Translations under genes and position numbers: made by a program
Notes under the pieces: model-generated
Databases searched by the model: none
Told to the model about the DNA's origin: nothing
The model's input: the letters and a program-made list of their open reading frames with translations, nothing else
Virus record (IMG/VR): IMGVR_UViG_3300045988_141150
Strand: one strand, 5' to 3'
Source: a virus
Length of the DNA stretch: 40,350 nt
In this document: positions 15,109 through 38,459 of the stretch, piece by piece
Layout of the letters: every line of letters starts with the position of its first letter
How positions within the stretch are numbered: the first letter of the stretch is position 1

Positions 15109-15111
15109 ATT

Positions 15112-20813: not shown

Positions 20814-20834
20814 CAAGCAAAAGTTCCAATTCGT

Positions 20835-21245
20835 ATGATTGCGAATAAGTGCTATGACGATAACCTTCCAAGAGAAAATGGAATATGCGGTTCTTACGTT
20901 CGACCGGAAGACGTAGATTATTATGGAACATATGTCTCAACTTTAGAATTCGATGAACCTGCGCTCTCTAAAGAAGCTGTGCTTTTGGATATTTATCAAA
21001 GTGGTCATTGGCAAGGTAATCTAAACCTTTTATTAACTAATTTAAATTATAATGTGGATAATCGTGGAATTCCCGAAGATTTTGGCCCCAACCGCATCAA
21101 TTGCGGTCAGCGCTGTCAGCGACAAGGGACGTGTCATTATTGTGAAACCGCATTTATATTTTCTCGTGTTATAGATAAAGCCGTTCAAGCAAGTAAGCAG
21201 AATAATCCTATCCCCGAAGCGGAAGAAGACTCAATTGACAAATAA
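20835..21245 (+). CDS. Hypothetical Cys-containing protein of 136 aa.
   Basis: The ORF is in the track. Confidence 0.5.
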   Translation: MIANKCYDDNLPRENGICGSYVRPEDVDYYGTYVSTLEFDEPALSKEAVLLDIYQSGHWQGNLNLLLTNLNYNVDNRGIPEDFGPNRINCGQRCQRQGTCHYCETAFIFSRVIDKAVQASKQNNPIPEAEEDSIDK

Positions 21246-21296
21246 AAAAAATAATGTTATAATATAAATATAAGATAAAAGATAGGAGAATAAACT

Positions 21297-22403
21297 GTGA
21301 GAGGTTTTAAAACTAATGAACTTTGGTTATTTGAATATCTGGTTCGCTCGACACAAGATGAGTTAAGAGAATATGTTGCCGATGTATTGAAAGCTAAATA
21401 TACTGAAGTAGTTATTACTAAAGAGTATGTTTGTGCGGTTGGCGATATTCCTATTGCTTTAGTAGCTCATCTTGATACTGTGTTTGAGAAACCGGTCAAA
21501 GATTTATATTATGATACAAGAAAAAATGTGCTTTGGTCGCCCGATGGTCTTGGCGCAGATGATAGAGCAGGAGTATATGCGATTCTTCATATTTTGAGAA
21601 ATACATCTTTGCGTCCTTCTATTATTTTTACCACTGATGAAGAAATTGGTGGATTGGGCGCCGAAGCATTAGTATTACAATATTTTGAGTGTCCATTTCC
21701 CAATCTGAAATATATTATTCAGTTGGATAGACAAGGCACAAATGATTGTGTGTTTTATGACCTTTACAATCCTAAATTCATTGATTACATTGAATCTTTT
21801 GGATTTGTAGAGGATTTTGGCACGTTTAGTGATATTAGTGTTTTATGTCCTGAATGGAAAATTTGTGGCGTGAATCTTTCAGTAGGTTATAAAAATGAAC
21901 ATAACCGTATTGAAACATTAAATGCGGGTGCTCTTTTTGATACGATTAATAAGGTAATCCGCATGCTCAAAGAGAAAGATATTCCTAATTTTGAGTATTA
22001 TCGTAATTATCATAGTATTTGGTTCGATAATATTTGTAAGAATTTTCCAACTGATGGCGATGGATTCTACGTTCATTGTAGAGGATGCGGTCAGTTATTT
22101 AGTGAATATGAAACATTTCCAGTAAAGGGATTAGATGGACATACATGTTTTTATTGCCCTGATTGTATTCCCAGTAATGTTGAATGGTGTGCGGAGTGTG
22201 AAGAGGCATTTGAGATTGACCCTGCGAACCCACACAGCGAGTATTGTAAAGATTGTATTGGAGGATTAGTCAAATGTCATATGACTTCGACATCGAAAGC
22301 ATTAAAGAACAGTTCAACAAAGTCATCAGTTACTCCCAAGGAATCAGTAATCCAAAAACAGAAGAACTATTCGAAAGATTCCTCGAAGCCAAAAAAGACT
22401 TAA
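21297..22403 (+). CDS. M20/M28-like Zn metallopeptidase domain followed by a C-terminal zinc ribbon. The true 3' end is uncertain.
   Basis: The motifs HLDTV, DGLGADDRAGV and TTDEEIGGLGA are present, with CxxC pairs at the C-terminus. The last 130 nt overlap the next gene in another frame. Confidence 0.5.
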   Translation: MRGFKTNELWLFEYLVRSTQDELREYVADVLKAKYTEVVITKEYVCAVGDIPIALVAHLDTVFEKPVKDLYYDTRKNVLWSPDGLGADDRAGVYAILHILRNTSLRPSIIFTTDEEIGGLGAEALVLQYFECPFPNLKYIIQLDRQGTNDCVFYDLYNPKFIDYIESFGFVEDFGTFSDISVLCPEWKICGVNLSVGYKNEHNRIETLNAGALFDTINKVIRMLKEKDIPNFEYYRNYHSIWFDNICKNFPTDGDGFYVHCRGCGQLFSEYETFPVKGLDGHTCFYCPDCIPSNVEWCAECEEAFEIDPANPHSEYCKDCIGGLVKCHMTSTSKALKNSSTKSSVTPKESVIQKQKNYSKDSSKPKKT

Positions 22404-23704
22404 TTAAATTTTTTCACGGTCATTTAATTTATGAATGGCCGGAAAAGGTATCTTTTTCCTTAGATGATAAAACTAAAGAGCATCGTCTTGAAGAGTTTCT
22501 TGAAACAATTAATTATACTTATAATAATGAAGACTTAAAGGATTTTATTTCAGTAAATAAAGAAGGATTCTTTAACAATACAGTTATAGATACTTATTTC
22601 TATAAAGATAAAAAGATTCCAAGAGGAATGAAATTAGTTAAGGCTTTTAAGTATTTTGAAGAGAATCCACGCTCTTTGGAAGATATTCAGAATTACGCAA
22701 GTCGTATTATCCAAGAGGACAAGATTGAGGGAACATTATGTTTCTCAGTTCATCCTTTGGATTTTTTAAGCGTAAGTGAAAATACTTATAATTGGCGCTC
22801 TTGCCATGCACTTGACGGCGAATATAGAGCAGGAAATTTATCTTACATGGTAGATAAAAGCACTTTTATTTGTTATTTGCGCGGAGCAGAGAATCAGAAA
22901 CTTCCGCATTTCCCTGAAGATGTTCTTTGGAATTCTAAGAAATGGCGTATGCTTCTTTACATGGAAGATAAGCGACGTGGTTTAATGGCTGGTCGTCAAT
23001 ATCCTTTTATGACAACCAATGCTTTAATTAAAATTAAAGATATTATCAATACTTTTGATAAGACTTTTCAGTTGCGTGAATGGGTAGATGGAGGTATTAA
23101 TACTGTTTCTAATAGGATGAGCACTACTTCTTTTGATGAAGAAACTATTGGATTATCCGAGACATGGATTCCTATTTTATCTCGTTTATATCCTATTAGT
23201 GATATTGTTGAAGATATTGGCGAGCATACTCTTCAATATAATGATTTGCTTTATTCTTCTTGCTATTTACCCATTTATAGTTTAAAATTGTATTATTATC
23301 CATTAGAGACTGATCTTCCTCATTGGTCTATTGGTGGCGATGTCCCTTGTTTACAATGCGGTAAAACTATTATCGAAAGTGGAGAATATATGCGATGCGG
23401 AGACTGTGAATTCAATTATGGAGTAAACGAAGATGATAATTACGGTTATTGCGCTTGTTGCGGTTCTCGTATAATCCTTGATGAAGCAAATTCCGTAGGC
23501 GATGAGAATGAATTGGTTTGCGATAGTTGTGCAGATACTTATTGTAAACGATGCGAATGTTGTAATAATTTATATTATACAGAAGATATTCACTATCATA
23601 AAGGAACTGATATGTATTTATGTCCTTGGTGTTTTAGAGATGCTGATGAAGAAAAAGTTAATAATTTTAGGTCTTTAAAAGACTTTATACATAATTTTAG
23701 TTAA
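22274..23704 (+). CDS. Large protein with C-terminal zinc ribbons. It is a paralogue of the gene at 18141..19745.
   Basis: ATG at 22274 follows a GGAGGATTAGTC RBS, within track ORF 22253..23704. Confidence 0.6.
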   Translation: MSYDFDIESIKEQFNKVISYSQGISNPKTEELFERFLEAKKDLIKFFHGHLIYEWPEKVSFSLDDKTKEHRLEEFLETINYTYNNEDLKDFISVNKEGFFNNTVIDTYFYKDKKIPRGMKLVKAFKYFEENPRSLEDIQNYASRIIQEDKIEGTLCFSVHPLDFLSVSENTYNWRSCHALDGEYRAGNLSYMVDKSTFICYLRGAENQKLPHFPEDVLWNSKKWRMLLYMEDKRRGLMAGRQYPFMTTNALIKIKDIINTFDKTFQLREWVDGGINTVSNRMSTTSFDEETIGLSETWIPILSRLYPISDIVEDIGEHTLQYNDLLYSSCYLPIYSLKLYYYPLETDLPHWSIGGDVPCLQCGKTIIESGEYMRCGDCEFNYGVNEDDNYGYCACCGSRIILDEANSVGDENELVCDSCADTYCKRCECCNNLYYTEDIHYHKGTDMYLCPWCFRDADEEKVNNFRSLKDFIHNFS

Positions 23705-24022: not shown

Positions 24023-24027
24023 TTTAA

Positions 24028-24062
24028 AGAGTAATGTCATTTGACATTACTCTTTTTTTTTG
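24028..24062 (+). terminator. Rho-independent terminator at the early/late boundary.
   Basis: Hairpin AGAGTAATGTCA-TT-TGACATTACTCT followed by a run of nine T. Confidence 0.75.
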
Positions 24063-24194
24063 TTATTATTTATTTAGTAAAAATGATAAATGGTTAGGTT
24101 TAACCGAAATTAAAAAATAAAATAAAATAAATTTTTAATAAAAATAGGATATATAGTATCCTAATTATTTATTTTATTAGGAGGAATTTTAATA

Positions 24195-24611
24195 ATGACT
24201 GAATTAAATAATACCTTTAAGGTAGTTGTTACTGACAATGAAGGCAAAGAGACTGAAAGTATTATAACTGGTCCTATTGTTTTTTCTACAAGTATTAATG
24301 GAGAAACTAGCGGAATTAAATATACTTTTAGACTTCGTGAATATTCAAAAGGCTATGATGTTGAAACTTTAAGTTTACCTAAAGTTTCTGCTCAGCTTAT
24401 TGGAAATTTTGATCGTTCAAAGGTTGCTAAAATTGGTGTATATTATTTAGCTGTTTCTAATGATTATAGAAAAGTTTTTGAAAAAAATGTTGCCAATATT
24501 GCTGAAATGGTATTCGAATATAATAATGATATTGGAGATAAGTCATATGCTAATAGTTATAACACTATAGCAGAGCTTAATATAACTTATACTCCCGAGG
24601 CTGTAAATTAA
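24195..24611 (+). CDS. Hypothetical protein of 138 aa, the first gene of the late block. It contains no TAG.
   Basis: The ORF is in the track, with a TAGGAGGAATTTT RBS. Confidence 0.55.
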   Translation: MTELNNTFKVVVTDNEGKETESIITGPIVFSTSINGETSGIKYTFRLREYSKGYDVETLSLPKVSAQLIGNFDRSKVAKIGVYYLAVSNDYRKVFEKNVANIAEMVFEYNNDIGDKSYANSYNTIAELNITYTPEAVN

Positions 24612-24624: not shown

Positions 24625-25347
24625 ATGGCTGGTAGTCGTATTTCATGGAGCGATGTTCGCGCTCTATATGATACTTTAAATACTGCTTAGACTCGTTTTT
24701 CTCAATCTCGCACGGCTGCTCCCTCAAATGAGGGGCGTCGTACGAGAGAAAGTGACATTACTACTTTAAAAAATGAAATTGAAAATTTAAGAAATGTTTC
24801 TTATGTAGGAACTTAGGCTACTTTTTCTAATTTTACCGCTCCAAGAGCTAATGAACTTATGAAACGAGTCCCTTTAGAGGAAATTAGAAGTAAACTTGAT
24901 ACTATAAATGGCATTTGCGCCTATGATGGAGCGAATTATACAAGCAATAATGGTTATCGTGGTGCTAACTATACAAGTAATAATAGTCAACGTTCTTCTT
25001 ATTATTCAAGTAATGATGCTCAACGTTCTTCTTATTATTCAAGTAATAATGCTCAACGTGCTTCAGATTATTCAAGTAATAATGCTCAACGTTCTTCAGA
25101 TTATTCAAGTAATAATGCTCAACGTTCTTCAAATTATTCAAGTAACTATACTTATTATACTGCTAATTATTCAAGTAATAATGGTCATAGATCTGCTAAC
25201 TATAGTAGTAATAATGGTAATAGATCTTCTAACTATAGTAGTAATAATTCTCAACGTTCTTCAAATTATTCAAGTAATTATACTTATAGAAGTGCTTATG
25301 CTTCTAGAAGTTCAAATCGTAGTGGCGCTGGTAGAGTACGCTCTTAA
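24625..25347 (+). CDS. Repeat protein of 240 codons with two in-frame TAG. About 12 tandem 11-residue repeats of the form (A/S)xY(S/T)SNNxQRS follow a 100-residue N-terminal region. It is a candidate multi-core RiPP precursor.
   Basis: ATG follows an AAGGAGAGAAT RBS. The frame is continuous with track ORF 24859..25347 through TAG codons at 24688 and 24814. The underlying nucleotides form a 33-nt tandem repeat. Confidence 0.55.
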
Positions 25348-25378
25348 TTTTTTGAGAAAAAGGAGTTTTATAATATAA

Positions 25379-26878
25379 ATGTTTAAAGAAATGGATATTA
25401 GAGCAATATCTTTAGTTTCTTCATGTGGATGTAATTTACATTGTAAATATTGTCTTATTGAGAATACTTTAAATAATTGCTCTGCAAATTTACAACATGA
25501 AACTATTAAAGCTTTAAATGATGGTACTTTTTTAAATAATGTAAAAGGTATTTTTAAACGTTTAAATCTTGATAGATATAAAATAGAATGTTTTACTTTA
25601 TGGGGTCAAGAGCCTACATTGACATTACATCTTCTTACTGATCATTTGGAAGATTGGTTTAATTATTTCCCAAATATTAATCATATTGACTATTCTACTA
25701 ATGGGATGGATTTTCCTGAAAGAACTGTTAATTTTATTAAAAAGGTTGATGAATTAGCAAATAATGAACTTGCTTTAGAAGTTCAATTCTCTTATGATGG
25801 CACTTACTCAACCAATAATATTAGAAATGCTAATAATGAAAAAATCTTTGAGACTGCTTCAACTGTAATTAAAGAATTAAATAAAATTAAATTTCATAAT
25901 GTAAATGTATCTATTCAATTACATGGTGTTCTTTCTGGAGCTTTAATTCATGAACTTAATACAACTCAAAAAGTTCATGATTATTATAAAGATTTAGATA
26001 ATTTTGGATTTGAATTAGCTGATATTAATCTTAATTAGAGAGTTGAAGTAAATAGTAGTGTATCTATTTGCCCTGAGAATCCAAGAGATGGATCAGTTGA
26101 TGAACGTATTGAATATGAGTCTTTCTTACAACGCATTGTTAATATTGATGTAAGTGATTTTCATGACCCACATCTTCCAGTTAGTATTATTATTGGTTAT
26201 CGTCATCTTTATGAAGAAGTATTTTCTGATTTACATGGATTTACTGGAGAAGATCGTCCAATTACGCCCCAAGAATTAATGCGATTAGTTATGGAAGGAA
26301 ATCAAGAAGCAATTACTGTAGCTTCAAGAAATAATTTTTGTAGTGGTAATTTTAATGAATTAAAATTACTTTATGATGGTACTATGATGTCTTGTCAAAA
26401 CTTTATGTTTGATCTTGATGGTAATAATGTTAAAGATGATGGTACTATTGGAGCACAATTGAGAAAAGACACTCGTCGCACTAAAACTGATTGCATTAAT
26501 CTTTTAACTGATAGTGAAGAAGATATTAATAAAGTTATATATAAATATAATATGTATAAAACACATTCCTTCCCATTTATGTTTCAAGCAACTGTAAATA
26601 CTTTACAAATGCTTAATGAATGCAATCAATTAAATTCTATTTACAAGTATAATCCTGATAAATTATTAAGATTGGCATTAATTGCAACAAAAATTGATGC
26701 TTGTACTTATAATAATTTTATTTCTTCTGGTAGCGCGTTGTTAAGAAGTGTAGGCACTTTAAGAACTCAATCAGCACTATTTATGTATGTAGATAGAGAA
26801 AATAATTTACTTAAACCCGAAGAAGAATGGTTCCGAAATACTGAAAATATGAATGAATATAGAGGAGAAAGTAATTAA
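25379..26878 (+). CDS. Radical SAM enzyme of about 499 codons with one in-frame TAG at 26036.
   Basis: It carries CGCNLHCKYC, a CxxxCxxC motif. Track ORFs 25379..26038 and 26279..26878 are in the same frame, joined through a TAG with no TAA or TGA between them. Confidence 0.6.
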
Positions 26879-28281
26879 TGAATATTAGTGAAGGTTGTCA
26901 ATTAGATAATAATAAATATTTTGAAAAATTTATAGATAATTATATTTTTAATAGGGATCACCAAGAGGAAGGATACTGGATTAATGGAGAGTCTTTTGAG
27001 CTTATTATAAGACCCGAATGTAATCAACAATGTGAATATTGTTATGTTGCACGGTATGGAGATAAACTCTATCCGATGGAGAAACGCGCCGATAAGGAAA
27101 CTCTTGTTCATAATACAGATATTATTTTGAATTATATCTTTAAAGAAAGAAAAGTTTTATTTCATGAAATGGAACTTTTTGCTGGAGATTTATTTTATGA
27201 TGATATTGGATTTGAAATTCTCGAATTAATGTTTAAATATTATAAAGAATTATTTGATGAACATCCAAATATTTTTAATTTCCATCCTCGTATTGTAATT
27301 CCTAATAATTTTAGTTTTGCTATTGATGATAAAAAAGCTAAAAAAATGGAAGAGCTTTTAGCTAAATTTAAAACTATCAATATGGAAATAAGCCTTTCTT
27401 GTTCTATAGATGGACCTTATAATAGTGTGCGCGAGCGCGATAAAGATGATAGTTATTATACTAAAATTCTTGAATTCCTTCAAAGAAATCCTTGTGGTAT
27501 TCATCCTATGATTTCTCCAAGTAATATTGAGAGTGCTATTAAGAATTTTGATTGGTGGGACGAACAATATGAAAAGTATAATCTTGCTGGTGAAGACATT
27601 CATGATTTTCAACCTATGTATTTGGAAGTCCGCAATGATGAATGGACTGATGAGAAATTAGATCATTATCTTGAATTTTTAACTCATATGCTTGAAGTAA
27701 GATTTCATAAAAATGGTGAGTCTGTAGATAAATTGGCAAGACATATTTTCTTAGGAGATGGAAAAGAAGGTTCTTTACCTTGTCTTGGTAATTATGACCC
27801 TATTGGATTAACTTCTACTTGGAATAGTGAAGAATATACTTGCGCGATTTCGCATTAGACTTGTCTTTATGTGGCGAGTTTTGAATTTGCGCCTTGCCAT
27901 AGAACTTCTTATCCTCAGTTTCTTGGTGGACGTCTTGATGTAAAAGATGACAAAGTAGTTGGTATTACTGCAATTAATCCTACTGTGTATAGTGTAATTA
28001 AAACGAATAATACACATATGAATATTGGTTGTTTAACTTGTCCTTTTGATCCTTATTGTTTAAAAGGATGTTTAGGCGCTCAGTATGAAGCCACAGGTGA
28101 TTTATTTGTTCCCGGTGAAAGCGTTTGTAAATTACATAAAACACATTTAACTTTTTTAGTAAAGACTTATTGTGAGTTGGGATTAACTAAAATTGCAGTT
28201 GAAAAAAATTATTTTAAGAGTGAAGCAGATAAAGAAAAATGGCTTACTTTATGTCGTAAATTGGGGTATTATAATGATTGA
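26878..28281 (+). CDS. Radical SAM/SPASM-domain enzyme of about 467 codons with one in-frame TAG at 27856.
   Basis: It has an N-terminal CNQQCEYC radical SAM motif. Its C-terminal Cys cluster CLTCPFDPYCLKGCLG...VCKLH has the SPASM pattern. Track ORFs 26878..27858 and 27871..28281 are in the same frame. Confidence 0.6.
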
Positions 28282-28576
28282 AGAAATGAAAAGACAAATT
28301 CAACACTTAGATGATACTTTTGATCCTTCTAATGTTGGAGATTATAAAGATTTATTATATGTAATCTATTTAAATTGGATTGAAAATAATGGAGAAAACG
28401 AAGAAGTCAATTCTCTTATTAACAATTTAATTAAAAGAATTATTGATTCTAGCATTAATGATAATAATAATTGTGATAATTGTAATGAAGATGAAGATCC
28501 TAATATGAGTGAAGATTATTTAATTTATCGCCATTTCTTAGGATATAAAATTCCTGGCTATTGGCGTAATCATTAA
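28274..28576 (+). CDS. Small acidic protein of 100 aa. It could be an accessory protein or a precursor.
   Basis: ATG lies in the frame of track ORF 28193..28576 and overlaps the upstream TGA. Confidence 0.45.
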   Translation: MIEEMKRQIQHLDDTFDPSNVGDYKDLLYVIYLNWIENNGENEEVNSLINNLIKRIIDSSINDNNNCDNCNEDEDPNMSEDYLIYRHFLGYKIPGYWRNH

Positions 28577-29157
28577 TGTTAATTAATTTATATAATGCTC
28601 GTCAAACTTTATTAAGATCAGTAAAGTTTGACGAGCGTGAATGCGATGATATTGTTTTTGGATTAAATTTTCCAAAAGAAATTACTTTTTGCAAAATTGT
28701 AAATAATTCAAATGATATAGAATATTCTTCATTAAATTATCTATATAGTCAATTAAAAGATTTAGAATATAAAGATATAAAAATTATTGAATTAGTTTTT
28801 AATCAAAAACAAAAATTTACGTTTGAATCTACAGTAAAATCTATTTTTTATAGAACAATGTTATATTCAAGTTAGGGACAATTGGAATTTAAATTATATT
28901 TAACTTTACGATTTGAAGAAGAACATCCAATTATTTACGATAAAGAAGAATAGATTTTAAAGTGTGACAAAAATTGTAAACAGTTAAATAGAAAAATACA
29001 TCGTTGTGAATTTTTTCATAGTGATTTAAATGATATAAATGAAATTTGTACGGAATGTTTTTTGTAGGAAAGAGATAACCAAATAAAAGAATTGGTTAAT
29101 TATAATAGAGATATTATAAATGTTTTGGAGAATAAATATGGAAATAGATAGAACTAA
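28576..29157 (+). CDS. Hypothetical Cys-containing protein of about 193 codons with four in-frame TAG.
   Basis: It extends track ORF 28576..28875 through TAG codons to a TAA at about 29155. Confidence 0.4.
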
Positions 29158-31216
29158 AAATTATCAAGGGATTCCTCCTTATACTAATCCAATATGGAAA
29201 TCGGTTTATGATGGTGTTAGTTTAGAAATGCATATTGTAGATCATTGTAATCTTAATTGCGCAGGATGTAATCATTTTTCCCCTTTAGCAGAACCTTGGT
29301 ATATTGATTTAGATGATTTCCGTGATCAGATTACTTTTGCTTATAAAAAAATTCCAAATATAAAACTTTTTATGATTTTAGGTGGAGAACCTACTTTGCA
29401 TCCAAAATTATTTGAAATATGTTAGATTGCTAGAGAAGTTTTCCCAAAAAATAAAGTAGAAATTAAAATATTAAGCAATGGGTGTCATTTACAAGATGCT
29501 TTTAAACATGAGAAAGAATATCAAGATATGGGAGTAATATTTGATATTACTACTTATGGGAAATATACTGATCATAAAGCGGTAGAATATTTAGACAGTC
29601 ATGGTTTAGGTTTTAATCATAATTCAAGATTATTTATGCGACAATAGCTTGTAAATGAAGCAGGAACTACTGATATAAATGAAGTATATTTTCATAAATG
29701 CCCGCATTAGTTACCTTGTTTTACTTTAAAAAATTATAAAATTTATATATGTCCTTTTTCTGCACATTTGGATATTTATAGAAAAAAATATAATGTAAAT
29801 ATTCCAGAAGATGAAAGTGATTATTTGCGATTAGAGGATATAAATAATTTAGATGATTTACATAATTTTATTTTTAAGCCTAAAAATATTTGTAGATATT
29901 GCGATGGAACTATGTCTAAAGCCTCTTGGATTTGGCACAAATATTATGATACAAAATCGGAATTTATAGTTCCAATGGAAGATGCTTATTTTAGAGATTA
30001 TGATTTTTATTTAAAATTAGTTAATGATAAAGAAAATTTTTTAGAAAATTATTAGTTATTTAAAGAAAACAGATGCCCAATTGAATTTAGATATAATACT
30101 TATTATTTAAAAAAATGTTTTACTCGTTTTATTGATGGAAAAATGGATATTATAATACCTTATTATAATATGAATGATTAGCAAATTATTAATTTGTATA
30201 ATAATTTATCTACCCAAACAATTATAAAAGATTGTTGTGTATATTTTATTAGCGACCATTCTTTCTATGATAAAAAACTTATTGAGATATTTGATGAAGC
30301 GAGTTTTCCTTGTTTCTTTTTTAAGAATTTAAAACGAAAAGGACCAGGTCTAACTCGTAATTTAGGATTAGAATATTCTTTTAATAAATATGTGTTATTT
30401 TGGGATTCTGATGATTTATTCCCAAATGATAATGTTTTAGAAATTTTATATAATTCAATAAAACATAATGAGAAAGATTTTGGAGTATTTAAAATAGCTA
30501 ATACTGATAAATCAGTTGAAAAGATTAATTTAATTCTTAAAAGAGATTTTCTTAATAAAAATAATATAAAATATTCAAAATTTTTCTTTGGAGAAGACAG
30601 TATTTTCTTGGATAGATGTGATATTTATGGTGAATCTTATGAGTTAGAAGACTAGAATTTAGGTCTTTATATAACTTAGTTAGAAGACAATCCTAATTGT
30701 TTATCTCATTCTAATTCTAACATGGTAATTACAGCATATATTAATAAAATAATTGTATTTTTTGCTAATTTTATTGATGTTTTGAAATTAGAAAATATTG
30801 ATGAAAATCGTAAACAAAGTACTTTAAGACGGAATCTTTATAGAATTATTAATGAAATAAAATCAATAAGTGATTTAGATTCTTCTTTTTATGGATATGA
30901 AAATAATTATTTTTTAGAAAAAATTCTTCTTTTAATTTATTATATTTTATATACTATGTATAATTTATATAGTAACAAAGAAGATTTTAATAATATTCCC
31001 AATTTGTGTAATTTAGATAAACAAATTATAGAAGATATCAAAAGTTAGAAAATTAAATTTAGTCTTCTAAGAGGAGAATGTATAACTAATTTTGATGATA
31101 TTAAAAATGAAATTTATCCATTGTTAAATTATCTTAACAATGAATTATGCTATGTGCCTACTTATGAATGGTTTCTGAATTATTTAGATGGAAAAGGAGA
31201 GAGTATTTATGATTGA
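29138..31216 (+). CDS. Continuous 692-codon frame with 9 in-frame TAG and no TAA or TGA. It has an N-terminal radical SAM domain (CNLNCAGCNH, GGEPTLHP and a C-terminal CRYCDG) and a central GT2 glycosyltransferase domain (IIIPYYN...GPGLTRNLG...FWDSDD). It is one fusion protein or two to three cistrons.
   Basis: Track ORFs 29120..29425, 29768..30055, 30194..30655 and 30722..31048 all share one frame and are separated only by TAG. The frame ends at a TGA at 31214. Confidence 0.5.
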
Positions 31217-31391
31217 AACTTATCAAGAATATAAAGAAAAAGTTTATTTTCTTCTAAATAATTTTTTAGATTTTACTAAAGGAGATAAACCTTATTTATT
31301 TAATATGCCTTCAAAATTAGGCAATCTTCCTAATCTAAATGAATATTTATATTTTTGTTTTAATAAATCTGATGCAGGAGAAAATAAATGA
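31209..31391 (+). CDS. Small protein of 60 aa.
   Basis: ATG follows an AAAGGAGAGAG RBS, in the frame of track ORF 31188..31391. It ends in TGA. Confidence 0.45.
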   Translation: MIETYQEYKEKVYFLLNNFLDFTKGDKPYLFNMPSKLGNLPNLNEYLYFCFNKSDAGENK

Positions 31392-31930
31392 GGTTTACTG
31401 ATTATCATTTTGGATAGGCAGAGTCTGACTTTTGGACTTTATTAAAAGAATTTCTATTAAGGTTTGATCCCAATAGTATTTATGATTTTTGGATTTTATT
31501 TATTTATTTTTAGTTAGGTATTATTAGAAAAGATAGATTTATCATTTATTAGGTATAGTATATTTTAAAAGAAAAAATAGATTTTGAAGAAATTAATGAA
31601 GTAAATTTTAATACAATTATTCCAATAGAAAAGATAAATTTATCTAGTTTAAAAGATTGTATTTGGATAAGCTATTGGATTTGTTAGTATAATTATTAGA
31701 ATGATGAAAATTTAATTTTAATTTATAGTGAGAAAATATTTAATAATCTTACTAATATTTTTGAGCCGGATATTGTTATAGATATTCCAATAGTGTAGTA
31801 GAGTAATAAAATATGTAAAATGTGCGGTTTAGAGTCTAAATCTAATGGATAGAATATACCATTTTTTAAAATAAATGATAATAAATATTTATGTCCTAAT
31901 TGTTATTATTTATTAAAATTAAATGAATAA
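31388..31930 (+). CDS. Hypothetical protein of 180 codons with a C-terminal CxxC...CxxC zinc ribbon. It has about 10 in-frame TAG.
   Basis: ATG overlaps the upstream TGA. The frame is free of TAA and TGA for 543 nt in a region of about 25% GC. It is invisible to the standard-code track. Confidence 0.4.
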
Positions 31931-32023
31931 TTATTAAAACCTACTTTTATAGTAGGTTTTAATTGATTTTTAATAAAAAATAATGTATTATAATTATAAG
32001 ATAAATGAAAAGGGTGTGTTTAT

Positions 32024-33808
32024 GTGAATAATTATAATCAACATTATAAAGAAATAAGTCCTATTGAGACTGTTAATAATATTAAAAATTTTTTAGAAGG
32101 ACGCGGATTTACTTGTGTTGAGGAAGCTTTACGACAAGAACAATCAACTACTTGGAGTCTTGTATTAAATCTTGAATACAAAGGACATTTTGTGCTAAAA
32201 ACTTATGGCAAAGGTGTTACAAAAGAATTCGCCAGAGCTTCTGGTTATGCGGAAATGTATGAGCGTTTTTGTAATGGAATGCACTATCTTTGTAATTCTT
32301 TTCTTTGTGCGGAAAAAATTGAATTAAATAGAAAAAATTATGGTTATTCTTTGTTTAAAAATGAAAAGCCTTTAAGTTATAAAGAGGCACTTGGAGGAGA
32401 AGATACTCTTTTATATAAACTTTTTGATCGTTTGAATAAGAAAGATAATGGTTTATTAGAGGATTATTTTAAAACTATTTATAATAATGAATTTTTTGGA
32501 ATACCATTTAAAGGAGTCAACATTAATAAAACTTTATATATGGATCCTCGTCTTCTTCAACGTTATCATGGTAGTTCGGGAATGGCAGCCGGCAATACTT
32601 TTAATGAAGCCTTAAATCAAGGTTTATCTGAAATTTTCGAGCATTATGTTTTAAGTAATTTTTATATTGATATTGATAATAAAGATTTTTATTTTTATGA
32701 TACAGATAGTATTAAAGATGAAAAATTAAAAAATATTATTAGTGCGATTAAATCTCATAATAATAACTTTTATATTATTGATATGTCAAGAACTTATAAT
32801 GTGCCTGTTATGGTAGCAATTTTGATTAATAAATATAGTGGTACTGTAGCTATTAATTTTGGTGCTTTCCCTGTATTTGAAATTGCAGTTGAGCGAGTTT
32901 GTACTGAAATGTATCAAAATTGTTTTTCTTTTGATACAAGAAAAACTTCAGTTGTATCTCCGTATTATTCTTTAGATAAAGAAGATATGGTTATAGATGG
33001 CGGTTCTTGTATTACAAATCTTAATACTTTTCCTGAGAGTTTATTCTTGAATAAGAAATTTGTAAATACTATTAATAAAGATGTATTTTTATCTTATACT
33101 GATAAAAATTACTCTAATGATGAAATCTTAGAGCATAATAAAAAGATTGCTACTAATATTGGAGCAGATATTTATTGTGCTGATGTATCTTTAATTGATA
33201 CCGTATCTGCGATTAGTATTTATGTTGATAATCTTGACGGGCTATGGAAATCTTTCTTTGATAGATGCCAAGGAGTTAAAGAAACTGGAGAAGCAATTAC
33301 TATAACTAAAAATAAACATTTGGCCATTAAAAACTATTTAAATAATAAAGATAAAGTATATGATGTAATTAAATATTGTCTTGATTATTATAATATTACT
33401 TTTGACAAAATTGTAGATAGATTTTGTGGTTTACTTACTCATGGAGATCAATTAGTTGCTTATAATAATAAAAATATATTATTAACACCTAATGAGATGT
33501 TTGTTAAAAACCTTTATATGGATGCAACAGGATATTTATTAGAAGATGAAGGATTTTCTTTAGATATTTCAGTTAGTTGTTTTTATACTTATTATAAAAA
33601 ATATTTAACTTTATTAGCATATGTTCACAGTAGAAAATATACTAAAGAAGATATGATTAAAATTTTCAAAGAATTTGATTATACTTTTACTGATGAAGAT
33701 TTTAAACATATTACGGATAGAAAATATTTAGTAGAAAAATGTATTTTAGAGCCTATGTATAATACATTTAGAAGCAATGATTTTAAAGAAATGATTAAAA
33801 ATTATTAA
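32024..33808 (+). CDS. YcaO-domain protein of 594 aa.
   Basis: HGSSGMAAGNTFNEALNQGLSEIFEHY matches the YcaO ATP-binding signature, which has the form xGSNGLAsGNTxxEAxxQGLxExxER. The ORF is in the track and has no TAG. Confidence 0.65.
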   Translation: MNNYNQHYKEISPIETVNNIKNFLEGRGFTCVEEALRQEQSTTWSLVLNLEYKGHFVLKTYGKGVTKEFARASGYAEMYERFCNGMHYLCNSFLCAEKIELNRKNYGYSLFKNEKPLSYKEALGGEDTLLYKLFDRLNKKDNGLLEDYFKTIYNNEFFGIPFKGVNINKTLYMDPRLLQRYHGSSGMAAGNTFNEALNQGLSEIFEHYVLSNFYIDIDNKDFYFYDTDSIKDEKLKNIISAIKSHNNNFYIIDMSRTYNVPVMVAILINKYSGTVAINFGAFPVFEIAVERVCTEMYQNCFSFDTRKTSVVSPYYSLDKEDMVIDGGSCITNLNTFPESLFLNKKFVNTINKDVFLSYTDKNYSNDEILEHNKKIATNIGADIYCADVSLIDTVSAISIYVDNLDGLWKSFFDRCQGVKETGEAITITKNKHLAIKNYLNNKDKVYDVIKYCLDYYNITFDKIVDRFCGLLTHGDQLVAYNNKNILLTPNEMFVKNLYMDATGYLLEDEGFSLDISVSCFYTYYKKYLTLLAYVHSRKYTKEDMIKIFKEFDYTFTDEDFKHITDRKYLVEKCILEPMYNTFRSNDFKEMIKNY

Positions 33809-33819
33809 TAGGAGATTAT

Positions 33820-34698
33820 ATGAATATTAATTTTAATTGCCCTGAATTTTACTATGGGATTGAAGTATATGATAAACTTTTTGAATTACAAGAAATTGCT
33901 CCAGAAGCATTTTATCCAGAAGCCAAGGTAAAGTATATATATGGCTGTCTTCCTAATATGATTTGGAATGGTGGCGGATTTATGGATGGACGTCCAGAGC
34001 ATAATATTGATTATCTTTGCGCAATGCGTGATTTTTATGAAAAAAATAATATTATTTTACGTTTTACATTGACAAATCCGCTTTTAGAAGAAACTGACGT
34101 TTATGATAGATACTGTAATGAAATGTTAAAACTTTTTGATAATGGTATTAATGAAATTATTGTTAATTCTCCTATTCTTGAGCGCTATCTTCGAGACAAA
34201 TTTCCTAATTATAAGTTGACTAAAAGTATTACGGCAGCAAAAGAAGATTATGATTTTGTAAAAGCTCTTGATAATTATGAAAGCATTGTCCTTCCTCGTC
34301 GTCACAATAGAAATTGGGAACTTCTTGATTCTATTCCAAAAGATAAAAGAGAGAAAATTGAAATTCTTGCTGATGAAAGTTGTCCTATTGATTGTCCTCG
34401 TCTTTATACTCATTACAATGTTTTTGCAAATTTTAGTTTGTTTAAAAAAATTGATGACTCTCAGCGTAATTGTACTACTATGAAAAATAATGGCGCAGTT
34501 TTTCCTGAAATTGATAATAAAGATATGATTTATATGGATGAAATTTTAAATACTTATTTACCAAAAGGATATAATAATTTTAAGATTTCTGGGCGCAATT
34601 GCGCTGACCATTGTGCAAAATCTATTACTCCGTATTTTTTTAAACCAGAATATCAATTAGAAGGTTTTTGCGAGTTGCTCGATATTGGTTTGAGTTGA
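33820..34698 (+). CDS. Hypothetical protein of 292 aa, possibly a partner of the YcaO protein.
   Basis: The ORF is in the track. It begins 12 nt after the YcaO stop and has several Cys pairs. Confidence 0.5.
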   Translation: MNINFNCPEFYYGIEVYDKLFELQEIAPEAFYPEAKVKYIYGCLPNMIWNGGGFMDGRPEHNIDYLCAMRDFYEKNNIILRFTLTNPLLEETDVYDRYCNEMLKLFDNGINEIIVNSPILERYLRDKFPNYKLTKSITAAKEDYDFVKALDNYESIVLPRRHNRNWELLDSIPKDKREKIEILADESCPIDCPRLYTHYNVFANFSLFKKIDDSQRNCTTMKNNGAVFPEIDNKDMIYMDEILNTYLPKGYNNFKISGRNCADHCAKSITPYFFKPEYQLEGFCELLDIGLS

Positions 34699-34702: not shown

Positions 34703-34741
34703 AACTCCTTACTATTTTATTTAGTAAGGAGTTTTTTTTTT
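34703..34741 (+). terminator. Rho-independent terminator.
   Basis: Hairpin AACTCCTTACTA-N7-TAGTAAGGAGTT followed by a run of ten T. Confidence 0.75.
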
Positions 34742-34822: not shown

Positions 34823-35377
34823 ATGGCAATTCCAAAAGCAATAGAACATATGCGTAGTGGAAGTGGCGGTTTAGAAATTATTCCAATTATTTCTACTGAT
34901 GGATTAACTTACACAGGAACCGCAAAATCTATTAAAGAATATAAAGACGGAATGATTATTGGTCTTATTCCAAATATGAATAATATTGCGACAAATCCAA
35001 TTACTAATATAACGATAAATATAAATAATTTAGGAGCATTAAAATTAACTCAATATTATATTAAAAAAGAACATTCTAATAATGGATTAGGGTGTTGGCA
35101 CAGCAATACTGCTGTAGAAGCCAATTTTTTATATAAAGATGAAGCTTTTATTGGATAGATACAATTAGGGTCATCTAGTGGTGATTATATTTTACCTATT
35201 AATCCAGGATTAGACTTAGCTTAGATTACTAATGGTTCTATTGGGTCTAATTTGTCTGTCACTGCTAATTCTTCTTATTTAAACAATAATATTTTAAGAA
35301 ATATTAAAGTATCTACTTCTGCTCCCACCGCTTCAGACGGAAATGTTGGAGATATTTGGATTTAGTATTTCACTTAA
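34823..35377 (+). CDS. Putative virion or tail protein of 184 codons with three in-frame TAG.
   Basis: Track ORF 34823..35158 continues in frame through TAG to a TAA at 35375. An AAGGAGGTCATTTAA RBS lies upstream. Confidence 0.45.
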
Positions 35378-35393
35378 TAGAGGAGGAATTTAA

Positions 35394-36809
35394 ATGCCAA
35401 ATACTTATAATCCTTCTGGAACTTCTATAACAGATTATTCTTCTATTAAATTTATTCCAGGAGATATTATTAATAGTAGCTATTCAGGAGCGGTAAATCC
35501 AGTAAAACTTCCAACGGGAAATTATCAATTAGAATGTTGGGGTGGCTATGGTGGAATTGGTTATTCTGGTTCTTTAACTTCATCAACAACAACTTCATGG
35601 ATATATATAGGAACTAATAATGCAACTAGTTATTTTAGCATTAATAATGATTCAAATTATTATTTCCGTCAAGATGGAAATGACTGGATAGCTACAAATG
35701 GCGGTATACATTCAAGTACTGCAACCACTACATTAACTTGTACTTCTGCGGGAACTTACAAGATTTATTATTATTATCAGACTGAAGTAAATTGTGATAA
35801 AGTTACTTTAACTGTTGGAGGATCAACGGTTTTAAATGCCGTATCGGGGTCATAGTCTTTAACTGAAGCTGGTAGCTATTCTTTATCATCAGGGTCTACT
35901 ATTGTAATGACTTATTCTAAAGATAGTTCAGTAAATGCCGACAATGAAGAAGTTTATTTTTAGATTTAGAAATAGGAGAGTAATACTACTTATACTCCCA
36001 CAAGTTCAAAAAATAGTTATTGGGGTGGAGCAGGAGGATATTCTACAGGAATTCTTTCTTTATCAGCCCCTACTGTTATCTATTTGTATACAGGAGGTTA
36101 GGGTAATTATTCAAGTAATAGTGAAAAAGGAAAAGTAGTTAGTGGCGGATTTAACGGAGGAGGTAGCTCTAGAATCAGATGGTATACTTCTGCTTATACA
36201 TCAGGAGGTGGCGGAGGTGGCGCTTCCGATGTTCGTATAGGCCAAGACTCTCTTTACGCCCGTGTAATTGTTGCTGGCGGTGGTGGCGGTGGCGCAGGAG
36301 AAAGCAATTCTTCTATTAAATAGGGCGGTGGATTAACTGGTAATTCTGCTGTTGAAGAATATAAAGCTACGTAGACTAAAGCCGGAACAAATGGATCTTT
36401 TGGCCAAGGGGCTGATGCTAGTGGATCTGCCAATTATAATTATGGTCCCGGTGGTGGTGGTGGAGGCTGGTACGGTGGTGGTGCTTCTACTAATGTTAGT
36501 GACAGTTCCGCCGATTATAGAACTTATAATGGCGGAGGTTCTGGCTATGTATATACTTCATCAACTGCCTCTAATTATCCTTCTGGCTGTTTGTTAAATA
36601 GTAATTATTATTTAACAAATGCTTCTACTGCTATAGGATATAGTAAAACCAATCCAGGAGGGCAACATGGGTATATTCGTATTACAGTATTATCTCCATT
36701 AAATGTAAAAATTAATCCTAACACCTATGCTCCTATTAAAGCAATATATACAAAAATAGATAACACAACTTGGAAAGGAGGAATGACTACATGGCAACCT
36801 ATGACTTAA
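35394..36809 (+). CDS. Glycine-rich tail-fibre-like protein of 471 codons with 7 in-frame TAG.
   Basis: Track ORFs 35394..35855, 36352..., and 36591..36809 share one frame. The N-terminus contains LPTGNYQLECWGGYGG. The C-terminus contains SGYVYTSSTASNYPSGCLLNS...GYIRITV. Confidence 0.55.
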
Positions 36810-38128
36810 CTTCTTCGATTCCTTCTTCTTCTTCTTTAAGAACGGGGGATATATTAAATTGTCCTTATAGTGGATCTGCTAAATCAATTACTCTTCCAAA
36901 AGGCACTTATAAATTAGAATGTTGGGGAGCACAAGGTGGAAATGCAGGTTATTATAGTTATGTTCATTCAACCCCTAATGGAGGAAAAGGTGGATACTCT
37001 ACTGGTGTAATCACTTTATCTTCAAGTGTTATAGTATATCTTTATACCGGAGGACAAGGAGGAAGTACTATCGGGAATAAGCTAGACTAGAATTCAGTAG
37101 CTACAGCACCTGGTGGATTTAATGGAGGTGGCATCGCTAATCAAATGGGAGCCGCTGGTGGTGGTGGAGCTTCTGATATTCGCATAGGCCAAGATTCTCT
37201 CTATGCTCGTATAATCGTCGCTGGAGGCGGTGGTGGTGGAGGCAATGCGAGTAGTTCTACTTTATTATCTTGTGGCGGAAATGGTGGAGGAACTACTGGT
37301 GGAACTCCACCTAATTAGCACAATAATAGAACCCCAGGAAAAGGAGGAACTCAAACTGGAATAACAGCTAGTCGTTCATCATCAATTTCTGCGGGATTTG
37401 GTAATGGAGCTGGTGGTACGGGAGAAAATCTTCGTGGAGCCGGTGGCGGTGGCTGGTATGGTGGAACTATGGGTGAAAATTCAACTGGCGGAGGTGGAGG
37501 TTCTGGTTATGTATATACTTCCTCAACTGCTTCTAATTATCCATCTGGTTGCTTATTGAATAGCACTCATTATCTTAGTTCTGCTTCTACAATAGCTGGC
37601 GACACTTCATTCACTTCTCCAACAGGGTCATCTGAAACAGGTCATAGCGGAAACGGGTATATAAGAATTACTATTTAGTCTATTGTTAACTGGGCTTATT
37701 CTACTGTATCAATTCCTGCTCCTACTTATAGTAAATAGGATACTTCTTCTTGGACTTTATCTCCGAGTGCTTGCAGGTATTTTTCTTTTACCCCTACTAT
37801 TTCAGGAGATTTTATTGTTTATTCCAATTCTTCAATAGATACTTTTGGCTATTTAACATCAAATATTGTTTCTCTTAATAGTAGTGGATAGCCTTCTTCT
37901 AATATTTTAGCTAGTGATGATGATTAGGCAAAAAAATATGGTGGATCTGGAAGTAATTTTGGTATTTGTTATAAAGTTACTGCTGGAACTACTTATTATA
38001 TATATGTTAAGCCTTATCGTGATAGTACAGCAAATAGTTCAGTATATTTAACTTATTATATGGCTCATCCTGACAGTAGAGTATATGTAAAAACAGATAG
38101 TACAACATGGAAATTAATAACCAATTAA
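36791..38128 (+). CDS. Glycine-rich tail-fibre-like protein of 445 codons with about 8 in-frame TAG. It is a paralogue of the gene at 35394..36809.
   Basis: It shares LPKGTYKLECWGAQGG, SDIRIGQDSLYARIIVAGGGGGG and SGYVYTSSTASNYPSGCLLNS...GNGYIRITI with the upstream gene. It ends at a TAA at 38126. Confidence 0.55.
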
Positions 38129-38136
38129 AAAATTTT

Positions 38137-38165
38137 TTGACATTTTAAAAAAAATAATATATAAT
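38137..38165 (+). promoter_or_regulatory. Family-A promoter: TTGACA, a 17-nt spacer, TATAAT.
   Basis: It matches the motif. It drives the tRNA-Trp region. Confidence 0.6.
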
Positions 38166-38299
38166 ATATTTATAAAATAAAGAAAGACCTTTACAGCAAA
38201 AATAACTTCCAGAATAAACTAATGATTAAGTCATAATCCTTTAAGATTAAAATAATGGTTCAACTCCATTTTCCGGACAAAGTTAAGGTCTTGTTTTTA

Positions 38300-38374
38300 T
38301 AGGCGTCTGGTGTAACGGTAGCATGCGGGTCTCCAAAACCTTGCGGTGTGGGTTCGAATCCTACGACGCCTGCC
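38300..38374 (+). tRNA. tRNA-Trp with anticodon CCA.
   Basis: Acceptor stem AGGCGTC pairs with GACGCCT over 7 bp. The T arm is GTGGG-TTCGAAT-CCTAC. The anticodon loop is CTCCAAA. The discriminator is G and CCA is encoded. Confidence 0.7.
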
Positions 38375-38396
38375 ATTTTAGACAAAAAGAACTTTT

Positions 38397-38425
38397 TTGA
38401 TTTTATTAAAAATATATAATATAAT
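38397..38425 (+). promoter_or_regulatory. Family-A promoter.
   Basis: TTGATT, a 17-nt spacer, TATAAT. Confidence 0.6.
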
Positions 38426-38459
38426 ATATATAGAAAGTTGAGAAAGGAGAAAATAAATA

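Follow-up and report, generated by a model that had tools for sequence, protein, structure and literature searches.

A phage-borne cassette of paired radical SAM, YcaO and glycosyltransferase enzymes that probably modifies a co-encoded tandem-repeat protein

What might a phage modify with three radical S-adenosylmethionine (rSAM) enzymes, a family 2 glycosyltransferase (GT2) and a YcaO protein? This question is raised by the IMG/VR virus record IMGVR_UViG_3300045988_141150, a DNA stretch of 40,350 nucleotides (hereafter the window), in which a plus-strand gene run at about 24.2–34.7 kb encodes these enzymes together with a tandem-repeat protein, g24625. An original prediction, made from the letters of this DNA, had described the region as a locus resembling those for peptides that are made by ribosomes and then modified post-translationally (RiPPs). 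All elements listed in that prediction (the repeat protein, three CX3CX2C motifs, a SPASM-type Cys cluster, GT2 and YcaO) were found where it had placed them. Based on the comparisons reported here, we consider it likely that phages and prophages of gut Clostridia carry this locus as a self-contained cassette for post-translational modification, with the co-encoded g24625 as its substrate.

In most of this run, the genes become continuous once in-frame TAG codons are read as Gln. With the standard code, the segment at 24.6–31.9 kb contains only short open reading frames (ORFs), whereas reading TAG as sense restores full-length genes between 24625 and 31930 and gives a continuous set of ten: g24195, g24625, g25379 (rSAM-A), g26878 (rSAM-B), a small acidic protein, g28576, g29120 (an rSAM-GT2 fusion), g31388, g32024 (YcaO) and g33820 (U32-like). 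Two contigs from IMG/VR, 194 and 124 kb long (loci L001/L002), are the closest relatives and share 93% identity with the window over 22.1–34.7 kb. In these relatives, the in-frame TAG codons are either kept or swapped with CAA/CAG (five cases) or TGG (one case). The exchanges between TAG and CAA/CAG indicate that TAG encodes Gln, such that the amber code 15 is well supported for this phage, as the original prediction had proposed. No CUA suppressor tRNA was found in the window or in the L001/L002 stretches examined, which correspond to approximately 10–20% of a genome of about 190 kb.

The repeat protein g24625 consists of a conserved N-terminal domain (N-domain; residues 1–105, with a junction Cys98 in GICAY) and a tail in which the 11-aa unit NYSSNNAQRSS is repeated 10.5 times over residues ~104–218 (repeat family D1), followed by the C-terminus NRSGAGRVRS. 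Tandem Repeats Finder detected this array with a period of 33 nt, a copy number of 10.5, 82% matches and a score of 340, in agreement with the Tyr/Ser/Asn-rich repeat protein described originally. A profile search of 1.84 billion representatives placed the N-domain in 247 clusters at E <= 1e-3, almost always at residues 1–110 of proteins of 100–370 aa, with short tandem repeats rich in Ser, Asn, Thr and Gly after it. Neither a Pfam or PHROG match nor a name was found for any member in the scans and the cluster look-up. The tails have two flavours, namely those that are aromatic-rich and Cys-poor like the one in the window (46 proteins) and those that contain Cys (68 proteins). The latter also have a non-repetitive middle segment rich in Trp, Tyr and Gly and a conserved C-terminal TIDITC..TK.N motif. 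A junction Cys between N-domain and tail is present in 123 of the 136 members, within the motif [VI][KRQ]C[RK]N for Cys-type tails and xxC[AP][FYH] for aromatic ones. The repeat units differ completely from phage to phage, and the repeat number varies even among near-identical strains (proteins of 196, 240 and 248 aa).

Several candidate features of the repeat proteins were examined and discarded. An ORF at 24908–25378 in frame +2 is a by-product of the repeats read in another frame, a CxxxC-repeat protein (L009_16221) is not an N-domain carrier (E 0.68), and the N-x-S/T sequons in the tails were set aside as the chance expectation for a composition rich in Ser, Asn and Thr. In one N-domain member, P0274, the repeats are of the form DNGFRSSDF and precede a Hint/intein-like domain at the C-terminus (starting with CLIPGT and ending with VHN), which suggests autoproteolytic release or C-terminal transfer of a modified tail in some lineages.

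The two genes that follow, rSAM-A and rSAM-B, resemble enzymes that modify peptides or proteins. The CX3CX2C motif is invariant in the alignments of the rSAM families. In addition, rSAM-A has three further conserved C-terminal Cys (C321, C339 and C442), and rSAM-B has seven (C322, C340, C385, C388, C394, C398 and C417), which are invariant among 10 aligned homologues and form the pattern C...C...CX2CX5CX3C...C of the SPASM arrangement. The domain scores are low. For PF04055, rSAM-A reaches 25.8 bits (E 1.3e-5) and rSAM-B 15.9 bits (E 0.015), both under the gathering cut-off of 29.5 bits, with five of the eight rSAM-B homologues matching at E<0.01. For the SPASM profile TIGR04085, rSAM-B scores 19.3 bits (E 1.1e-3; cut-off 27 bits), again with five of eight homologues at E<0.01 (best 1.9e-5), and PF13186 was not reported for rSAM-B in the Pfam scan. 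Of the three rSAM/SPASM enzymes predicted originally, all have the CX3CX2C motif, but only g29120 passes the PF04055 cut-off; the full seven-Cys motif belongs to rSAM-B, g29120 lacks a SPASM domain, and no protein passes the TIGR04085 or PF13186 cut-off.

Regarding family-level profiles, rSAM-A matches twitch-domain rSAM (5.7e-15), PapB, YhhB, DynA and GggB. All eight rSAM-B members match PapB (best E 1.9e-15), QhpD and nif11 rSAM profiles, and seven of the eight match the SCIFF maturase; weak matches to the YhhB and XyeB cyclophane-synthase profiles are also among the rSAM hits. A PDB sequence search with rSAM-B returned CteB alone (E 0.27). Thus, the profiles matched by rSAM-A and rSAM-B are exclusively those of maturases that cross-link peptides or proteins, and all scores are far below the equivalog cut-offs; the two enzymes represent new families within a known class. 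Together with the strong YcaO score described below, these matches uphold the original description of the enzyme set as RiPP-like.

The association between these two enzymes and the repeat protein was examined in some 25 loci from phages, prophages and gut Clostridia, with rSAM-B identity down to 30%; the rSAM-B alignment scans returned 14 IMG/VR loci and 16 more in GTDB species genomes. The order of N-domain/repeat protein, rSAM-A and rSAM-B is kept in IMG/VR, ENA and GTDB loci at rSAM-B identities of 94%, 70%, 41–37% and 34–30%. In each of the 13 genomic loci in which both genes were detected, and in every locus with enough flanking sequence, rSAM-A immediately precedes rSAM-B. An N-domain protein, almost always immediately 5' of rSAM-A, is present in 14 of 14 phage, prophage or metagenome loci with both rSAM genes and in 9 of 14 genomic loci with rSAM-A or rSAM-B. 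Moreover, tail type co-varies with enzyme clade. Aromatic-rich tails (0–4% Cys) occur in five loci besides the window, all with rSAM-B identity of at least 37% and rSAM-A alignments of 380–490 residues, whereas Cys-containing and mostly less aromatic tails occur in eight loci with rSAM-B identity of 30–34%, and in seven of these rSAM-A aligns over a core of only ~200 aa. Taken together, the conserved synteny, the co-variation between tail and clade, the junction Cys and the variation in repeat number point to the repeat protein as the most probable substrate, which strengthens its original nomination as a candidate precursor. Chance adjacency of the repeat protein and the rSAM genes appears very unlikely. 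In L020, the repeat protein and rSAM-A appear fused only because TAG was read as sense on a contig that uses the standard code, and its single TAG is located exactly at the expected stop; merged ORFs of about 800 aa in L035 and L042 were interpreted likewise by analogy.

The remainder of the cassette is more variable. The YcaO gene is present in about half of the loci, the g29120-type rSAM is either fused to GT2 or alone, and one to three g33820-like copies are found. In L003 and L007, the order is YcaO, a repeat protein of 309 or 368 aa, rSAM-A, rSAM-B and a small overlapping gene, with GT2 genes nearby. The N-terminal ~105 residues of this repeat protein are homologous to the N-domain of g24625 (BLASTP E 6e-7), and the tails, with CCNTNSTNAN and GCGNGNHGQ repeats, are unlike that of the window. 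YcaO is directly upstream of the repeat-protein gene in L021 and L038 as well. The carriers include TAG-recoded low-GC contigs of 100–200 kb, a contig with 58% GC that uses TAG as the stop of the repeat protein, and a standard-code SPbeta-like prophage (L025) of the isolate Clostridiales Family XIII bacterium PM5-7 (GCA_050435405.1; JBNDKG010000001.1, about 90.4–101.3 kb), in which the cassette is located between YonJ/HU and YonG/terminase. Its repeat protein has 168 aa and its possible small partner 147 aa. Given this prophage copy, the virulent-looking character in the original description is not established. The GTDB records with the cassette belong to gut Clostridia, namely Gemmiger, Roseburia, Oscillospiraceae and Lachnospiraceae, which are thus the likely hosts. 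Among 50,697 GenBank phages, no match was found by megablast of 24.0–38.2 kb or tblastn of rSAM-B.

The same loci allow an evaluation of whether the enzymes modify other virion proteins, such as tail fibres or the downstream glycine-rich proteins, with the repeat protein being an unrelated structural neighbour. The original prediction had raised this possibility based on presumed tail-fibre genes immediately after the locus. These genes form a block at 34823–38128 that comprises a gene for a 184-aa protein and two paralogous glycine-rich PF12810 (ALK/LTK) proteins (E 4e-35 and 3e-46, with 6–7 TAG each). The block is absent at this position in L001/L002 (93% identity) and present in L015 (70%); it is a mobile or variable block. 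Given this indel, the argument from adjacent tail-fibre genes fails. Structural genes are nevertheless found near the cassette in several loci: it is among TAG-containing genes with the glycine-rich proteins after it in the window, follows genes with Gp10_C, YadA-head and carbohydrate-binding module domains in L007, is just upstream of terminase and structural genes in L025, and has a tail-fibre-like protein before rSAM-A in L033. However, the flanking structural genes differ from locus to locus, whereas the repeat protein is a constant neighbour that co-varies with the enzymes. For these reasons, we regard modification of other virion proteins as improbable.

The rSAM-GT2 fusion g29120 bears on another alternative, namely that the locus acts in a DNA, nucleotide or cofactor pathway (e.g., DNA hypermodification or glycosylation, or formation of a MoaA-, QueE- or viperin-like product) to which the repeat protein is irrelevant. 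Phages often glycosylate their DNA. Thymidine hypermodification is also documented in phages (PMC8989533), and both points may be counted in favour of this explanation, as may the finding that the YcaO is not of the thiazole/oxazole-modified microcin (TOMM) type. The protein g29120 has an N-terminal radical SAM domain at residues ~35–300 (CNLNCAGC; PF04055 31.5 bits, above the cut-off, with PF13353 also matched) and a GT2 domain at residues ~340–490 (PF00535 45 bits vs the cut-off of 23.3, E 1.5e-11, residues 344–488) with the WDSDD motif, which confirms the GT2 enzyme with DSDD predicted originally. The same fusion is annotated in the NCBI genome GCA_050435405.1. Its rSAM domain weakly matches W-cofactor maturase, MoaA, NrdG and the pVip core, and a generic rSAM-core match to pVip was the only result in the PADLOC scan. 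Yet these matches are limited to the generic cluster-binding core (residues 35–130) and are far under the family cut-offs. Furthermore, rSAM-A and rSAM-B match maturases only, rSAM-B has the SPASM motif, and no nucleotide-metabolism family was found in Pfam, NCBIfam and PHROG scans of the module proteins. The assignment to cofactor or nucleotide families, which the original prediction had named as the outcome that would favour such a role, was therefore obtained weakly for g29120 and not for rSAM-A or rSAM-B. A nucleotide or cofactor pathway is the least probable of the explanations considered, and we give it very little weight.

The YcaO protein is confidently assigned at the family level (PF02624 98.8 bits vs 25.7, E 5e-28; TIGR00702 84.4 vs 75.65), and its ATP-site blocks align with those of Escherichia coli YcaO (PDB 4q84, E 1e-21). 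The subtype scores are much lower than their thresholds (TOMM SagD TIGR03604 36.1 bits vs 219; S12-type equivalog 100 vs 700). No E1-like/ThiF or TfuA partner turned up in Pfam and NCBIfam scans of the ten module proteins; a ThiF gene near a YcaO homologue was found in L004 only. The YcaO signature of the original prediction thus holds, with the protein closest to the E. coli type and not to the TOMM cyclodehydratases. No family was detected for the ~200-aa C-terminal extension, and the YcaO C-terminal domain PF18381 was not found in the Pfam scan. About 50 full-length homologues were identified (~30–37% identity, ~520–620 aa), several of them on contigs of 100–270 kb. In L009 (8826–17099), a g29120-type rSAM gene, homologous to the N-terminal domain of g29120, is directly 5' of and overlaps YcaO, which suggests that this rSAM and YcaO may cooperate. 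These genes are followed by DUF2828/DUF7788, a secreted protein rich in Ala, Lys and Glu, an rSAM gene, a 292-aa CxxxC-repeat protein without the N-domain, and RNase T and RNA ligase genes. Similarly, L004 has a block of YcaO, DUF2828, RNase T and RNA ligase together with two rSAM genes at 9–21 kb, with the ThiF gene located 2.5 kb upstream of YcaO.

The last gene of the cassette, g33820, was modelled as a TIM barrel with the best structural match to a U32 "peptidase" (10% sequence identity to 5d88). Its PF01136 score is 19.3 bits (cut-off 22.4), one of eight homologues matches this profile, and a PDB sequence search with the family returned nothing. A candidate paralogue, g20439, was rejected as not significant by phmmer. 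In an Oscillospiraceae metagenome-assembled genome (L027/L028), a g33820-like homologue is located beside four or five transglutaminase-core proteins in a context without rSAM genes, indicating that the family is not confined to the phage cassette. The U32 family includes the iron-sulphur (Fe-S)-dependent, oxygen-independent hydroxylases UbiU/UbiV, TrhP and RlhA, and the characterized U32 hydroxylases depend on prephenate, a product of the shikimate pathway. A DAHP_synth_1 gene (DAHP or KDO8P synthase type) is located directly after the cassette in L025 (12388–13191). It is of note given the prephenate dependence, and could equally be a sugar-acid synthase that feeds GT2.

Three further small proteins belong to the set. 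The small acidic protein has sequence homologues in L013–L015 and L017/L025 and positional equivalents in L003 and L007, and a small gene overlapping the 3' end of rSAM-B recurs in other loci. No Pfam, NCBIfam or PHROG match was found for this protein, and it is a possible partner protein of the enzymes. The gene g28576 adjoins the rSAM-GT2 gene in the window and in L017/L025. Both g28576 and g31388 encode C-terminal CxxC...CxxC motifs; they were rejected as paralogues (BLASTP E 1.5).

If the locus is a cassette for modifying g24625, a plausible sequence of events is as follows. The N-domain of about 100 aa would serve as the handle recognized by the enzymes, and rSAM-A and rSAM-B would install C-C or C-S cross-links in the short tandem repeats, with C-C links in aromatic tails, thioethers in Cys tails and the junction Cys as a possible further target. 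The rSAM-GT2 fusion may then glycosylate Ser, Thr, Asn, Tyr or Cys of the tail, YcaO may activate backbone amides with ATP, and the U32-like TIM barrels might act as Fe-S-dependent, oxygen-independent hydroxylases. The product would stay a protein consisting of the N-domain and a stapled, decorated tail, and would work as an effector or fibre either once the cell has lysed or while on the particle.

Another possibility is that the product is cut into small peptides. In a classical multi-core RiPP pathway, the N-domain would be a long leader that is cleaved off, and each repeat would yield a small cross-linked, glycosylated or azoline-containing peptide (e.g., a triceptide-like cyclophane) released by lysis as an antibiotic or signal. 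Repeat precursors that are matured by rSAM enzymes and give uniform small products are known (PMC11851443, PMC12957482). In the window, each 11-aa unit has one Tyr and one Arg as possible cross-link and cleavage sites; more generally, aromatic-x-x motifs recur in the aromatic tails, the cyclophane-synthase profiles are among the weak rSAM matches, and an exporter is needless if lysis releases the product. An M20/M28-like peptidase gene (21294–22403) is conserved a few kb upstream in L013–L016 and L021, but it is absent from the prophage version, and no protease or exporter is found within the conserved cassette. Furthermore, the Trp/Tyr/Gly-rich segment and the TIDITC..TK.N motif of the Cys-type tails resemble elements of a folded protein more than a spacer, and repeat units that are wholly different between phages argue against one conserved bioactive core. 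We therefore consider the multi-core pathway unlikely, though clearly less so than the virion-protein and nucleotide explanations.

The alternative, that the product remains a protein, is favoured by the N-domain always being attached, by the non-repetitive segment and conserved motif of the Cys tails, by the lack of a detected protease or exporter, and by the precedents of QhpC and HxsA. QhpC is an rSAM-modified product that remains a protein, and HxsA is the repeat effector of an anti-phage system compared below. The candidate substrate, which has 240 aa with an N-domain of ~100 aa, differs from the short leader-core precursor by which a classical RiPP cluster is defined. We lean towards a product that stays a protein and is not cut into small antibiotic peptides. 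Its role could be that of a fibre or adhesin, either released or bound to the particle, or that of an effector of superinfection exclusion, or the locus could yield small antibiotic peptides after all.

Several observations weigh against the cassette as a dedicated modification system for g24625. The case is drawn entirely from sequence and genomic context. Within the window, rSAM-A and rSAM-B are under the Pfam and NCBIfam cut-offs, and the tail is Cys-free while the nearest profiles of rSAM-B are those of thioether formers. In g29120, the rSAM domain lacks a SPASM and has the weak cofactor and nucleotide matches described above. No RRE/PqqD domain, leader peptidase or ABC transporter/exporter was found in Pfam, NCBIfam and PHROG scans of the cassette proteins. 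The second phage context of YcaO, with DUF2828, RNase T and RNA ligase (L004/L009), implies that YcaO and its rSAM partner may act on something else, or on something else as well. For g33820, the assignment to U32 is at the level of the modelled fold only. Finally, the AlphaFold2 model of g24625, built from an eight-sequence alignment, is unreliable (mean confidence score pLDDT 36), and therefore provides neither a fold for the N-domain nor a docking surface.

The predicted boundaries of the unit differ slightly from those proposed originally (Table 1). A terminator-like hairpin does precede the locus, but g24195 lies between it and g24625, such that the unit is predicted to begin about 0.5 kb before the original start, with g24195 as its first gene. 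The upstream and downstream hairpins enclose exactly the ten-gene set, and homology to L001/L002 ends at 34692, near the latter. Sequence homologues of g24195 were found only in the relatives with 70% identity (L013–L015), small ORFs occupy its position in the more distant L016, L017 and L023, and Pfam, PHROG and PADLOC scans gave no match.

Table 1. Predicted genes and signals of the cassette region, in window coordinates
Feature	Position	Strand	Description
Upstream terminator-like hairpin	24026-24055	+	13-bp stem, then T-run
Sigma-70-like promoter	24041-24069	+	TTGACA, 17 nt, TATTAT, TG extension; 11/12 positions match, by consensus scan only; overlaps the upstream hairpin
g24195	24195-24611	+	138 aa; first gene of the predicted unit
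g24625, repeat protein	24625-25347	+	240 aa, two in-frame TAG; probable substrate
g25379, rSAM-A	25379-26878	+	499 aa; CX3CX2C at C18/C22/C25 (CNLHCKYC)
g26878, rSAM-B	26878-28281	+	467 aa; CX3CX2C at C48/C52/C55 (CNQQCEYC)
Small acidic protein	28274-28576	+	~100 aa; ATG overlaps the end of rSAM-B
g28576	28576-29157	+	193 aa, four TAG; C-terminal CxxC...CxxC
g29120, rSAM-GT2 fusion	29120-31216	+	698 aa, eight TAG
g31388	31388-31930	+	180 aa, nine TAG; zinc-ribbon-like C-terminal CxxC...CxxC; close relatives only
Internal hairpin	31933-31963	+	Just 5' of the two TAG-free genes
Weak copy of the repeated promoter element of the window	31962-32003	+	Family D3, 74% identity; just 5' of the two TAG-free genes
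g32024, YcaO	32024-33808	+	594 aa, TAG-free; YcaO domain at residues ~60-390, ~200-aa C-terminal extension
g33820, U32-like	33820-34698	+	292 aa, TAG-free; conserved Cys188, Cys192, Cys218 (CPxDCPR)
Downstream terminator-like hairpin	34703-34733	+	With T-run; predicted end of the unit

Other features were observed in the DNA flanking the cassette. A promoter-like element of about 75 nt (TTGAyw, an A/T spacer and TATAATATATATATAAAGTwAAGAAAGG, often followed by ATG) is present in 16 copies at 1468–21299 and 38127–38791. It is missing from the 16.9 kb between 21.3 and 38.1 kb, except for the partial copy just upstream of YcaO and g33820; that these TAG-free genes have their own copy hints at expression before suppression is active. 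Upstream of the cassette, two paralogous proteins of ~480–535 aa (18141–19745 and 22274–23704) have a core of LC.S.HPLD....S....W.SC and multiple C-terminal zinc ribbons; one matches PHROG 18912 (unknown function), and both are conserved in L013–L016 and L021. Between them (20439–22403), a Cys-rich protein of 246–268 aa (two TAG, no family match) precedes the M20/M28-like peptidase (PHROG 34186, E 8e-43), and the Cys-rich protein has the same distribution among loci as the peptidase. The latter could be a processing enzyme or simply reflect backbone synteny.

Downstream, an unusual tRNA gene is located directly after the cassette (38208–38278; also at 10755–10825 in L001 and 12751–12821 in L002). 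With 37.5 bits, it exceeds the gathering score of the Rfam tRNA model, and ARAGORN assigns no anticodon to it. The anticodon loop comprises 6 nt (CUUUAA), extended to 8 nt when the closing pair is open, and the tRNA may act as a suppressor of the UUA type or read quadruplets. It is followed by four more tRNA genes in the window (38301–39905), and 17 are found at 10.8–19.8 kb of L001; arrays of this kind typically occur in very large phage genomes. At the end of the window (40231–40312), 41 nt are perfectly duplicated in tandem.

What appears to be new is a conserved rSAM/YcaO/GT2 cassette that travels with phages and is tied to an N-domain family of at least 247 clusters, while the enzyme classes are known from bacterial peptide pathways. 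Neither this cassette nor the N-domain family was found described in the literature searches. If the proposed substrate is correct, these phages would devote at least five enzymes that depend on Fe-S or ATP to the hypermodification of a protein of their own. The cassette would then provide a new reservoir of rSAM chemistry on repeats containing Tyr/Phe/Trp or Cys, as well as a genomic handle on two poorly understood groups, the E. coli-type YcaO and the U32-like TIM barrels. The standard-code copy in the cultured PM5-7 makes the system tractable without expression of recoded genes or work with an uncultivated phage. A broader proposal, which we regard as possible but rather doubtful, is that hundreds of gut Clostridia phages and prophages share a phage-specific class of stapled repeat proteins, in which a common N-terminal handle is joined to a private and fast-evolving tail. 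The tail would be cross-linked by the paired rSAM enzymes in the anaerobic cytoplasm and decorated by YcaO, rSAM-GT2 and U32-type enzymes, giving a protease-resistant fibre or adhesin, or an HxsA-like superinfection-exclusion effector. With such a class, a protein substrate would be proposed for U32-type enzymes for the first time, and the E. coli-type YcaO would gain its first functional context outside the ribosome.

The original prediction knew of no precedent for such an enzyme set in a phage, but precedents for parts of it exist. PHROG 1802 is a phage rSAM family, so rSAM genes do exist in sequenced phages. The SPbeta prophage encodes the glycocin sublancin (SunA/SunS) with a GT2 enzyme. 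As with sublancin, a ribosomal product and a GT2 enzyme are phage-borne in the cassette, one version of which is in an SPbeta-like prophage. Unlike the cassette, the sublancin locus has no rSAM, YcaO or U32-like enzymes, and has a short leader, a dedicated exporter and a non-repetitive precursor. In the QhpD/QhpC system for the maturation of quinohemoprotein amine dehydrogenase, a small subunit is stapled by an rSAM-SPASM enzyme and stays a functional protein, which is the outcome favoured here; the profile matches of the rSAM-B family to QhpD are nonetheless low (22 bits vs the cut-off of 453), and the locus has neither a dehydrogenase context nor a QhpC-like substrate. The YcaO resembles the E. 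coli type (RimO accessory factor) in its conserved ATP-site blocks and its genomic pairing with an rSAM enzyme (L009); no proline-rich C-terminus is visible in its sequence. Likewise, g33820 differs from U32 peptidases in being under the Pfam cut-off, with the likeness at the level of the model fold. Overall, the curated family thresholds are passed by YcaO, GT2 and one Radical_SAM match (g29120) only, and by score none of the cassette proteins is a member of the HXS, PapB, SCIFF, TOMM-YcaO or U32 families.

The closest class is rSAM/SPASM RiPP maturation with repeat precursors, including ranthipeptides/PapB, SCIFF/CteB, triceptide cyclophane synthases, WprB and TvgB. Repeat precursors or effectors matured by rSAM enzymes include WprA (PMC11851443), the poly-cyclopropylglycine precursor TvgA (PMC9062424) and HxsA (PMC13128918). 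The cassette shares with these systems a substrate gene that adjoins the maturase genes, short repeats that are likely modified, the best-scoring profiles and the seven-Cys SPASM motif. In contrast, its scores are far under the equivalog cut-offs (PapB 21 bits vs 340), its substrates are of 150–370 aa with an N-domain of ~100 aa instead of a short leader, and it always pairs two different rSAM enzymes, with no RRE, protease or exporter detected and a location in phages or prophages.

The closest architecture is that of the HXS anti-phage system, which consists of the repeat effector HxsA, the rSAM enzymes HxsB and HxsC and the small HxsD (PMC13128918). In both cases, a repeat protein is encoded with two adjacent rSAM genes and a small partner, and the HXS product is a modified protein effector. 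The similarity does not extend to family membership. rSAM-B matches HxsB TIGR03978 in the C-terminal region only (25.9 bits vs 370, E 3.9e-6; not equivalog), and the HxsC and HxsD profiles were not reported for the cassette proteins; PADLOC gave no HXS match in the cassette, with a 2023 library that may predate HXS. The cassette has neither HxS repeats (0.7% His in the window tail) nor a peptidoglycan-binding domain, and it has YcaO, GT2 and U32-like genes that are absent from HXS. Moreover, HXS is chromosomal and 99.7% of the systems are in Pseudomonadota (PMC13128918), whereas the cassette is phage-borne in Clostridia. Because the rSAM-matured repeat protein of HXS blocks phage DNA entry (PMC13128918), a role of the modified repeat protein in conflicts between phages, or between phage and host, becomes a concrete hypothesis for the cassette.

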